6,700 nucleotides of DNA from a virus. Taxonomy: Duplodnaviria; Heunggongvirae; Uroviricota; Caudoviricetes. The position numbers and the translations under genes were made by a program. The notes below the pieces were generated by a model that searched no databases, had not been told where the DNA came from, and worked only from the letters and a program-made list of their open reading frames with translations. Location: the IMG/VR virus record IMGVR_UViG_2534682222_000016. The stretch is one strand, 5' to 3'. Below, piece after piece: positions 1,659-4,130 of the stretch. Each line of letters opens with the position of its first letter. The stretch's first letter is position 1.

Positions 1659-4130
1659 TTAAGAATCAGCCTGACTCGGGATCAGTTTTTGCCAGATAAC
1701 TGAAACGTATTTTGCCTGGTAACGGGCGTCATCAAGTGCATTATGGCGCTCACCTTCGAATGGAATAGCCGTTCTGGCATCGAAGTCTATGGCTTTCCCC
1801 AGCTCAACGATTGTGCGTACATCGCGATCGTTGTAGTAACGCCACGGGCAGGGGATCCCCTGCCGTTCGTATGAACGGCGCAAAATCGTGTTGTCGAAGT
1901 TGGCTCCATTTCCCCAAACCTGAACAAAAAATTCACCGGAGTTTTCGTCGATAAATTCCCGCAATTGTAACAGTGCATCATCTAACGGGATTTCATCGGT
2001 CATAATGGCAGATTGCGCTTCGCGTGATTGCTTAAGCCACCATTTAATGGTGTTCCGATCAATGACTCCGCCAGCAGTTTCCAGATCGATAGTCTTACTA
2101 AATTCCGGTCCCATATCTCCGGTTTGCGGATCGAAAAATATTGCACCTATTGAGATGATCGGGGCATCAGGATTTTTTCCCATGGTTTCAAGGTCGATCA
2201 TTAGATGGTCACACGTCCTGCTGGTGGATGTGATTTCGTGATGACCGTTCACCTTAATTGAGTGATCTGCCGTCTCGCCAGTTTCATTATCGCTATTGTG
2301 ATGCTGATTGCCGCCAGTGTTCTCCTTGTGTGGATGTTCAGCGCCTTCCATTTCCTCCGGATCATCTTCCTGAACTTCAACCTGATATTCTTCATCGAAT
2401 GTTTCTTGATATGTTGCGTCGCCCATCACCGCGCCACAATCAGGGCAGTTGCCGCCGCCGGTCTGACCGCAGGCGGTGCAGACTTTTTCCACTTCCTGTT
2501 GCGCCACTGGTTCAGGCTGTTTCGTTTCTGGCTCGTTTTGTAACGCATTTGTGCTGTTTTGTTCCGCTTTTTGGTAGTTCCGTTCCGATTCATGCTGGTT
2601 CTGGTTCACAGAATCGCGGGTCTGGATCCCCTTAACCCATTTCGGATCATTCGGGTCACTAATCCCTTCAACAAATTCACCACGTGATGCAGCAAGCAAC
2701 TTATCGGCGTCAGGCTGGCTGATATTGGCTGCCTGCATAATTTTGTTTACTTCGTCAGCGGTAACTTTTATCGGCTCTGGTTGTTCTGAATCTTCAGCGG
2801 TATCTACATTTTGCGGTAAGCCCGTGTATGTGCCATTTTTTCGGGCAAAATATTCTTCTTTTGTGATTTCAGTGGCGCCAGCAGCCAGTGCCTTATCCAG
2901 ACCAGAAAGTTTGTTTGCGCGACCGTATTTTTCTCCGTCCTTATCTGCGAAGAGGAAATAGAACGGCCCCTCACGCTCTACAGATGGTTCAGCTTCCGGC
3001 GCGGTTTCATTTTTTGGGATATCAGATACCTCAGTTTCCACTGCATCAGTTTGTGTTTCTGATGACTGGAGAACATCAACAGTGCCCAGGTCTGTTTCTT
3101 CATTCTCAAACACGCCCTTTGTCGTCAGGTATTCGCAGATATATTTGTTCAGTGCTATGGGATCTTTGTGAATGTCGATCGGACGCTCACGGACAAGGCC
3201 AAAAATAGTCTGGCGGTCGTAGCGAAGGGCATCAGGCTGTTTGCGCATTGATGCCGAGATACGCTTCCAGTCTTCGCGGTCGTTGTCGATAACTTCTTTT
3301 TTTGCCCAGCGATGGATGCTGCCGTCAATGTTTCCGGCATCCACATCACTAGGCCAGAGAGCGTAGGCCAGTTCGTCATCCAGTGTTTTCCATGTCTGCT
3401 TGTATTCGCGATGAATGGCAGCAATGACCGGGCTGATTTTTCCTGTTGAATTTTCAGTGTACTGTTGATTGGCTCTGGCGCGGGCGAGATCAACAACAGA
3501 CGTGTATTTTCCGGTTTCCTTGCGTTCACCTTCGCGACGTTTTTTCCAGATGCGCATCTCTGCCTGAATTTCGGGCCATTTAGCACCAGGAATACATTTA
3601 TGCTTAACCCACCCAATGGCGTGCAACTTAAGCTCCGGATACATGGCGTTAACTTCTGGCATTTTCATCAACGCTTCAACGATATGTCCGTCGAATGTTG
3701 CCATGTCTTCCTGCAACAATTCCTGTGCGCTAATAACCATATCAACGGTGATGTTTTCACATGTGTCGAACTTAACCATGACAGCGTTCTGTACTTCAGG
3801 GGCCAGCTTGTCAAAAGTGACGTTCATCGGATCGGATTCAGTCTCAACCGGGACAAAAGAAGCAGACTCCTCATCCCAGCGGTTTTCCTGCATATATTCA
3901 GCATCCCATGAATCGAGGGCAGGGCGGGGTATGCCAGGTTTATCCTCGCAGACAATAAATTTATAAGCGCAGTCCTGAGCAGCCGGATAATGTTCCAGGA
4001 ACTGCCAGTGAAATTTTGCTCGAGCACGGCGTTCGTCGCCAGCTTCAATGGCTGTGGCTACAGCCACAGCGCCTTCTTCCCTTGTTGCCAGTTCGTCAGG
4101 AATAGCGGCGCAAATAAAGACTTTACTCAT
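1659..4130 (-). CDS. Prophage exonuclease-like protein, 823 aa (often annotated exodeoxyribonuclease VIII/RecE-like; N-terminus YdfE-like), with C-terminal DEDDh 3'-5' exonuclease domain
   Basis: Single uninterrupted 823-aa ORF. C-terminal residues about 640-815 (nt about 1686..2213) carry the DnaQ-like motifs: Exo I MIDLETMG, Exo II [8 protein letters not shown], Exo III [10 protein letters not shown]. Residues 551-565 (nt 2436..2480) form a CxxC-x7-CxxC zinc ribbon ([15 protein letters not shown]). Residues about 340-640 are strongly acidic and low-complexity. Confidence 0.85.
   Translation of the reverse strand: [823 protein letters not shown]

Follow-up and report, generated by a model that had tools for sequence, protein, structure and literature searches.

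A candidate modular tether with a portable four-cysteine module in a DnaQ-like exonuclease of Qin-type Escherichia coli prophages

The protein considered here is an 823-residue "exonuclease" encoded in a window of 6,700 nucleotides (the whole stretch of DNA analyzed; IMG/VR virus record IMGVR_UViG_2534682222_000016), which corresponds to the left arm of a lambdoid prophage of the Qin type in Escherichia coli. We found that residues 340-640 of this protein, encoded by nucleotides 3113-2211 on the minus strand, have a beads-on-a-string organization, with three conserved islands, termed miniA, mid, and Cys4, alternating with four acidic spacers predicted to be disordered (Table 1). By homology, the 823-residue protein is an accessory region of the RecE family joined to a DnaQ-like nuclease and is not itself a RecE. 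With moderate confidence, we interpret residues 340-640 as a noncatalytic modular tether of disordered spacers and conserved islands, in which the four-cysteine Cys4 island would act as an accessory docking module.

The original prediction had described residues 340-640 as one low-complexity linker of about 300 residues, separate from the catalytic domain and with a zinc ribbon embedded in it. The coordinates are accurate: the four-cysteine segment of 15 residues lies exactly where it had been placed, at nucleotides 2436-2480 (residues 551-565), and the Pfam DEDDh domain begins only at residue 642, leaving the stretch outside of the catalytic domain. The single linker, however, dissolves, since the three islands are conserved and of ordinary complexity. 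On a division into seven pieces, conservation (among 120 close clusters), the ratio of nonsynonymous to synonymous substitution rates (dN/dS, across 7 alleles), the AlphaFold2 (AF2) order profile, and composition agree. The dN/dS ratios, which come from short segments of 7 full-length, recombining alleles, are rough, with a large contrast between islands and spacers. The full-length AF2 model, based on an alignment of 71 sequences, is poor because all homologs in the alignment are close (mean predicted local distance difference test score, pLDDT, 44.6), and it served solely as a profile of order and disorder. Lengths and compositions of islands and spacers were counted in 171 distinct full-length homologs of the exonuclease type.

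The compositional bias noted originally is largely real. Compared with the rest of the protein, residues 340-640 are enriched in glutamate (14.0% vs 8.4%), threonine (8.3% vs 4.8%), and glutamine (6.6% vs 4.0%), and also in asparagine, whereas aspartate, listed among the enriched residues, is less frequent here than elsewhere (7.3% vs 8.6%). The net charge amounts to -40 over 301 residues. The whole protein is nevertheless acidic (isoelectric point, pI, 4.65; 4.54 for the exonuclease domain and 4.5-5.3 for the catalytic and N-terminal parts), so that acidity is not peculiar to this stretch.

The acidic parts behave as flexible tethers, as had been suggested: they lack predicted secondary structure, have pLDDT values of 24-37, and evolve with dN/dS of 0.66-0.97 in 3 spacer segments. 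The properties of a disordered acidic linker are confined to the 4 spacers (pLDDT 23-37, and <50 in spacer 2; dN/dS 0.29-0.97), where the fraction of aspartate plus glutamate is stable (standard deviation 0.02) at identities of 47-78%, that is, composition is held while the sequence drifts. In spacer 1, for instance, this fraction remains at ~0.30 despite a mean identity of 65%. The lengths of spacers 1 and 2 are nearly fixed, the latter measuring 19 residues in 160 of the 171 homologs at a mean identity of 47%, and spacer 4 is 62 residues long in all homologs but one (170/171), with dN/dS rising from 0.32 (residues 575-600) to 0.97 (residues 601-640). Spacer 3 comes in length classes of 21, 32, 39, 46, and 53 residues, plus a rare class of 48, most steps being multiples of 7 residues. 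Its deletions fall between degenerate EQN.. and Q(N/Q)EPE.. micro-repeats, with a cryptic periodicity of 7 residues. Any variable-length repeat expansion of the kind that comparison of homologs might have revealed would be limited to the stepwise classes of spacer 3, the other spacers being almost fixed in length. Tandem Repeats Finder and a direct-repeat search returned nothing meaningful in the DNA of the stretch, including spacer 3 of this allele, and stepwise lengths are seen in spacer 3 alleles only.

Of the 3 islands, miniA is the most confidently folded and the most constrained piece of the exonuclease. Its pLDDT of 75-82 (residues 389-432) is the best in the protein and its dN/dS is 0.07; with a net charge of +1 and 13 hydrophobic residues, it is predicted to form a small folded domain. 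The consensus PFYF..GRANKL.GL.KALA.G..EI..EEY.ARK.G includes twelve positions that are invariant among relatives of 47-73% identity, and proteins that contain the island end in a DEDDh nuclease or in one of the RecE type. Profile searches found no relative of miniA in Pfam or the PDB and, more generally, no credible Pfam relative of the islands. In mid, 29 of 31 residues are identical to RecE 455-485. A total of 47 representative clusters contain its motif (residues 478-498, nucleotides 2634-2696, minus strand), which immediately precedes the nuclease domain in short RecE-like proteins (P0205, P0216) and has the appearance of a short linear interaction motif.

The Cys4 module appears to consist of two rubredoxin-type knuckles, of which CxxCG and CPxCG are the signatures, followed by xVMGDATY. 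Its 15-residue core segment holds 4 of the 12 cysteines of the protein, and the pattern CxxC-x(2-20)-CxxC arose in 116 of 300,000 shuffles of the protein. The module is 28 residues long in 171/171 homologs, and its core reads CxxCGxxGGGxCPDCGxVMGDATY across divergent matches. All 4 cysteines are invariant both in the 120 closest clusters and in a cross-family alignment of 50 sequences; the series C, C, C-P-D-C-G is invariant in alignments of 22 and 50 sequences that span the exonuclease, RecE, Dam, and small-protein contexts, as is the tyrosine that follows the second knuckle, and variants that have lost a cysteine are rare singletons. The loop between the knuckles measures 6-7 residues and is glycine-rich in nearly all copies. 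The module is under purifying selection (dN/dS 0.08, dS 0.36), has a net charge of -3 with a lysine plus arginine fraction of 0.00 in the 171 exonuclease-type homologs, and is flanked by strongly acidic sequence. In the full-length AF2 model, it stands out with a pLDDT of ~52-57 against 24-37 in the flanks. Matches to known ribbons are faint: in Pfam, sub-threshold zinc-ribbon families (DZR, E = 0.006; Zn_Ribbon_TF, E = 0.026; the best scoring 17 bits, below the cut-off of 27), and in a PDB profile search, weak hits with E = 0.01-0.2, including 9qtr chain i (E = 0.01) and the TFIIB ribbon (CPECGLVVGD; E = 0.16). Given these weak or sub-threshold matches and the unconfident AF2 models, we refer to the module as zinc-ribbon-like. 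Most likely, it binds one structural metal ion, presumably zinc, with iron also possible. YdaE, a "zinc-binding protein" encoded near recE in the Rac prophage, was considered as a relative of the module and rejected, its cysteine pattern being unrelated.

The distribution of the module extends beyond exonucleases. A HMMER search with residues 340-640 against 1.84 billion representative proteins recovered 106 clusters, which match different sub-stretches of the query. In the long matches, modules are shuffled combinatorially: these proteins have 2 types of N-terminal region, miniA, mid, and Cys4 each present or absent, and a C-terminal nuclease of either the DEDDh or the RecE type. When one genome per species from 185,579 species (596 gigabases) was searched with a degenerate DNA pattern encoding CPDCGxVxG[DN]xTY, 23 loci matched; for this pattern of ~44 bits, ~0.07 chance matches are expected, by an information-content estimate rather than tool output. 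Nearly all loci belong to Enterobacterales, the remainder coming from Plesiomonas, Oceanisphaera, and three contigs in otherwise-labelled metagenome bins. The open reading frames (ORFs) that carry the module encode RecE-type proteins, proteins of the DEDDh-exonuclease type, proteins of 311-327 residues, and small proteins of 151-196 residues. One scanned carrier of 323 residues is a Dam methylase (PF02086, residues 8-265) that carries the module beyond its methylase domain, at the C-terminus. The first 120 viral-contig matches comprise 75 exonuclease-type, 21 RecE-type, and 14 Dam-type loci.

Carriers of the Dam type derive from P2-like phages, e.g., gp17 of Enterobacter phage phiT5282H, encoded just upstream of the replication nickase gene, and in 75 of the 120 nearest Dam clusters the module directly follows the final strand of the methylase. 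Dam proteins of 277-280 residues lack the Cys4 module and others bear different Cys-rich tails. More broadly, phage Dam proteins (P0346-P0465; loci L009, L011, L013, L016, L023, L027, L029, L030) have hypervariable Cys-rich C-terminal extensions, some with 9-10 cysteines in place of the 4-Cys module, and most of these extensions finish with an acidic stretch whose last residue is F or L (FDDLEAF, NGVEAF, LNAEPF, WESEENPIPL). The small carriers P0182, P0202, P0208, P0209, and P0221 end with the Cys4 module and have no recognizable domain. In a Mu-like prophage from a Plesiomonas metagenome-assembled genome (L021, positions 1-7800), genes for a transposase and a MuB-like ATPase are followed by small early genes, and one early-region protein of 151 residues ends with the module; the N-terminal part of this protein resembles P0209 (PHROG 6680, unknown function).

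Between the window and the Dam or small-protein copies, codons differ at 6-10 of the 11-13 identical residues, which argues for conservation at the protein level and not for recent DNA transfer. For the same reason, and given a dS of 0.36 among exonuclease alleles, we rejected the notion that the module is conserved only as a DNA-level recombination joint. P0199 (527 residues) had been considered as a natural linker-less control, but its deletion of residues 369-664 takes the DxE motif too, making it a decay product. In the RecE-like protein P0153 (756 residues), the RecE N-terminal sequence TASGANAGGGN is joined to part of the module through an internal deletion via GGGN microhomology, with loss of the first knuckle. 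RecE ~239-249 weakly resembles the loop of the Cys4 module.

We propose that residues 340-640 link the N-terminal helical region to the C-terminal DEDDh 3'-5' exonuclease, the 4 spacers acting as flexible connectors that would give the catalytic domain reach and the 3 islands as functional beads. The Cys4 module would dock the attached protein onto a common partner, possibly a protein or complex, of host or phage origin, located where DNA replicates or recombines. Docking seems the most likely role because the module is found on 3 unrelated DNA-enzyme folds as well as on small early phage proteins, and it is preferred over catalysis or DNA binding because some intact homologs do without the module, no basic residue is conserved in it, and its net charge is negative. 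The position of the RecE counterpart, outside the portion sufficient for nuclease activity and RecT-dependent recombination, also favors docking. The limitation to phages of Enterobacterales and near neighbors fits a host-specific partner and may also reflect a recent origin. A bolder version, in which Cys4, often together with an acidic/aromatic tail, is a portable "address tag" that docks unrelated early proteins of lambdoid, P2-like, and Mu-like phages on one hub, is a possibility that we regard as rather unlikely; such a hub might be the replisome, machinery centered on SSB, or a shared phage protein. If true, it would explain why full-length RecE outperforms the isolated nuclease domain in linear-linear recombination.

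Several points weigh against the interpretation of residues 340-640 as a tether with a docking module. Cys4 is missing from the intact homologs P0135, P0217, and P0228 (the last from a source that names it Citrobacter freundii), whose catalytic motifs are retained; any role of the module must therefore be accessory. The absence of the linker from functional homologs, which would have told against the original prediction, is seen only in part, since these homologs keep miniA and/or mid along with a long acidic spacer. When the isolated module was modeled by AF2 from the 50-sequence cross-family alignment, the mean pLDDT reached 58.7, with one beta-bridge and one helix, and Foldseek comparison of this model with the PDB gave only matches with E >4 to assorted zinc fingers, which we treat as uninformative. 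The constancy of spacer lengths may simply follow from how little the E. coli alleles have diverged (mean identity 65-78%) and, the alleles all being fairly close, it is only weak evidence for a constraint on length. The roughness of the dN/dS estimates, noted above, tells in the same direction. Finally, weak binding of DNA or single-stranded DNA (ssDNA) would account equally well for the portability to DNA enzymes.

In a rival view, Cys4 would be a small nucleic-acid-binding zinc ribbon that adds affinity or processivity on DNA, ssDNA, or DNA ends. Zinc ribbons bind ssDNA or DNA in the C-terminal domains of topoisomerase I, in primases, and in zinc-ribbon HNH nucleases; DNA is the substrate of all 3 enzyme classes bearing the module, and the invariant tyrosine after the second knuckle could stack on bases. 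Nonetheless, we consider a nucleic-acid-binding role, which the original prediction had entertained, unlikely: the module's negative charge, its lack of conserved basic residues, and its acidic flanks are ill-suited to it, the same module ends small proteins in which no DNA-enzyme domain is recognizable, and RecE deprived of the region is still a nuclease and a recombinase (PMC11611040). An electrostatic function of the acidic stretches, which might mimic DNA or act as a decoy toward host DNA-binding proteins such as restriction enzymes and RecBCD, or might form an autoinhibitory tail on the protein's own DNA-binding surface, strikes us as improbable. The strong net charge, the aspartate plus glutamate content of spacers 1 and 4 (26-30%), kept while the sequence drifts, and the acidic tails ending in F or L that follow many Dam-borne modules and recall the tails of SSB and T7 gp2.5 would all suit such a function. 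Known DNA mimics, however, fold and present their charges in a fixed array, whereas the acidic parts are predicted to be disordered and are nearly unconstrained in sequence (dN/dS 0.66-0.97). Acidity pervades the protein, so the mimic idea gains no specific support from it, and the acidic catalytic and N-terminal parts offer no obvious basic surface to mask. Location in the early-left operon, where lambdoid phages hold anti-RecBCD and recombination functions (PMC12315714), speaks for the electrostatic view, and against it stands that no anti-defense family was found among the PHROGs matches, the PADLOC defense library not having been searched.

It is also conceivable, though in our judgment very improbable, that the region is functionless. 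It would then be a mosaic joint or relic that arose when genes of the RecE and DnaQ types recombined in prophages that are for the most part defective, and the Cys motif would persist by descent. Extensive shuffling of modules, deletion derivatives and frameshifted copies (P0199, P0148, P0153), DNA similarity to recE of ~85% over nucleotides 2264-2711, almost neutral evolution of 3 spacer segments, and the absence of the module from some intact homologs are what a relic would show. Yet miniA and Cys4 evolve with dN/dS of 0.07-0.08, compared with 0.18 for the catalytic domain, at dS of 0.36-0.57; the ORF is intact in thousands of genomes; the module is maintained with different codons on unrelated proteins of P2-like and Mu-like phages; and loss of its cysteines is confined to the rare singletons. 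Overall, the 3 rivals each have some support but fit the data on selection, charge, and portability less well than does the beaded tether.

Outside of the tether, the N-terminal region is mostly helical in the AF2 model at low confidence. The new Pfam families PF27430 and PF27432, taken from precomputed matches of full-length homologs, were assigned to it because partial proteins that start at residues 188-207 lack both; partial proteins spanning residues 191-657 have no precomputed Pfam family recorded. Residues 262-339 align weakly with RecE 278-350. The C-terminal PF16473 match (E = 4e-67, 225.7 bits against a cut-off of 27) is the sole curated domain in the protein, and the catalytic motifs DxE, D, and H-x4-D are intact (DLETMG 646-651, NGANFD 741-746, HNALDDA 796-802). 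The nearest solved sequence relative is a 227-residue "exodeoxyribonuclease" (PDB 8kel, E = 1e-6).

The gene is placed in the early-left region, flanked by xis/int and ydfD-dicB. The protein is 100% identical to WP_033873403, an "exonuclease" of E. coli strain 127 from a prophage adjoining rspB, and PHROG 2082 "exonuclease" covers it end to end. Matches to the gene with coverage of at least 80% are present in 3537 of 5426 complete E. coli genomes, and it is also carried by induced phages, e.g., mEp460, HannyBb, and Tritos. Downstream of the gene are xis/int and upstream are ydfD/dicB; neither the window nor the annotated locus identical to it contains an ORF for a recT-type annealase. DicF lies between dicB and the repressor side, confirming an immunity-proximal region of the Qin/dic type. 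K-12-like strains (H47, H48) retain only the first ~255 codons of the gene (window 3365-4130, minus strand) at 99.9% identity, abutting an IS2 transposase gene; ydfE of K-12 Qin is, we presume, this truncated N-terminus. On the plus strand, the AT skew of positions 2100-2850 is strongly negative (-0.28 to -0.39), owing to the purine-rich coding strand of the acidic region, and the long antisense ORFs across that region (e.g., 2258-2635, plus strand) are likely by-products of composition.

Table 1. Features of the window and subdivisions of the 823-residue exonuclease
Feature	Residues	Nucleotides	Strand	Description
int		20-1315	minus	
xis		1335-1586	minus	
"Exonuclease" ORF	823 in total	1662..4130 (stop codon 1659-1661)	minus	From the ORF list
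N-terminal region	1-339	3114..4130	minus	Mostly helical in the low-confidence AF2 model; dN/dS 0.13-0.14
Spacer 1	340-388	2967..3113	minus	Net charge -13; pLDDT 25-28, no secondary structure; dN/dS 0.66
Island 1 (miniA)	389-436	2823..2966	minus	Predicted small folded beta-beta-alpha-beta-alpha domain, ~48 residues
Spacer 2	437-455	2766..2822	minus	Short, acidic/polar; pLDDT <50; dN/dS 0.80 (residues 441-455)
Island 2 (mid)	456-504	2619..2765	minus	Two short helices, then a 20-residue motif; pLDDT 42-51; dN/dS 0.27
Spacer 3	505-550	2481..2618	minus	Q/N/E/P-rich; pLDDT 24-37; dN/dS 0.29
Island 3 (Cys4 module)	551-578	2397..2480	minus	Zinc-ribbon-like; four Cys within 2436-2480
Spacer 4	579-640	2211..2396	minus	Acidic part, then H/N/G/T-rich tail into the nuclease domain; net charge -14; pLDDT 23-29
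DEDDh 3'-5' exonuclease domain	641-823	1662..2210	minus	PF16473, Rv2179c-like, residues 642-813
ydfD, dicB, DicF, cI-like repressor			minus	In this order after the exonuclease gene
DicF antisense small RNA		4775-4826	minus	Rfam RF00039, 72.5 bits, full length
cro-like gene			plus	From the ORF list

The RecE copy of the sequence has long been visible and its region is known as one of "unknown function", and ribbons on disordered linkers are a familiar architecture. Three points are undescribed in the literature searched and in Pfam, PHROG, and NCBIfam: that the stretch resolves into islands and spacers, how the module is defined, and the range of its carriers, which comprise RecE, DnaQ-like exonucleases, P2-like Dam methylases, and small proteins, one of these from a Mu-like prophage. 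The exonuclease gene is among the commonest prophage genes of E. coli, and full-length RecE, whose homologous region has carried the label "unknown function" for decades, is the basis of RecET direct cloning. With the resolution into islands and spacers, a vague "N-terminal domain" is reduced to a few testable elements, e.g., C517/C520/C528/C531 of RecE, which correspond to Cys551/554/562/565 here, and the main value of our analysis is that the old question of the role of the RecE N-terminus becomes directly testable. If the module does dock onto a common partner, this would show by what means temperate phages bring diverse DNA enzymes to a single location, with possible use in improving or retargeting recombineering enzymes; if the module is inert, the region is an ordinary flexible linker.

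Among known systems, DNA mimics of the Ocr/ArdA/Gam type offer little likeness: no PHROG, Pfam, or NCBIfam match to a mimic or anti-restriction family was obtained, and the folded scaffold of such proteins would be lacking in the acidic parts, which are predicted to be disordered. Closer in character are the C-terminal tail of SSB and the tails of T7 gp2.5 and gp4, which appear to resemble the spacers in acidity, disorder, and conservation of composition. In SSB and T7 gp2.5, the acidic C-terminal tail binds basic patches; the acidic stretches of the exonuclease differ in that they are internal, with no free C-terminal aromatic residue. With C4 zinc ribbons (the N-terminal ribbon of TFIIB, Zn_Ribbon_TF / DZR / Zn_ribbon_3), the Cys4 module shares the two CxxC knuckles, CxxCG and CPxCG, along with small size and autonomy and, as in TFIIB, a short hydrophobic strand-like segment after the second knuckle. 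Many known ribbons serve in protein docking. The inter-knuckle loop of Cys4 is shorter than in classical ribbons, however, and all matches lie under the curated thresholds. As for genomic context, a 2025 survey reported DnaQ-type nuclease genes, with roles unknown, near int in lambdoid early-left operons (PMC12315714). These are of the same class and occupy the same position, next to xis/int and outside of the canonical Rec module; the survey does not describe the tether or Cys4 and leaves the "shuffling of partner interaction domains" unanalyzed.

The principal comparison is with RecE (exonuclease VIII) of the Rac prophage. BLASTP against K-12 RecE aligns residues 262-625 with RecE 278-591 (E = 8e-62), with block-wise identities of 94% in mid, 93% in Cys4 (RecE 517-531, CNACGQTGGDNCPDC), 82% in the acidic stretch after Cys4, and 39-48% in the spacers. 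The original expectation that the architecture exceeds a simple nuclease annotation is thus justified in that the Cys4 motif is a discrete conserved module, and qualified in that residues ~474-625 are homologous to RecE ~455-591 and hence partly known. The homology ends at residue ~625, approximately 15 residues before either nuclease domain, marking a domain-swap junction, beyond which RecE has a PD-(D/E)XK 5'-3' nuclease and the present protein a DEDDh 3'-5' exonuclease (PF16473); BLAST detected no similarity of the latter protein to RecE 600-866, nor was a PF12684-like nuclease found. The N-terminal ~240 residues and miniA are likewise not those of K-12 RecE. The RecE equivalog NCBIfam NF007259 scores 283.4 bits against a cut-off of 1269, matching only residues 246-625 to positions 271-602 of a profile of 877. 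In RecE, the region is labelled a "domain of unknown function" (PMC11611040), so that the comparison itself supplies no mechanism. According to two reviews, on which statements about RecE truncations rest, the nuclease domain (564-866) genetically substitutes for the full protein, and the N-terminal part enhances linear-linear recombination (PMC11611040, PMC11610958). In both proteins, the shared central region of mid, Cys4, and the following acidic stretch comes immediately before the nuclease domain; the two genes are also alike in their location, the early-left region of lambdoid prophages.

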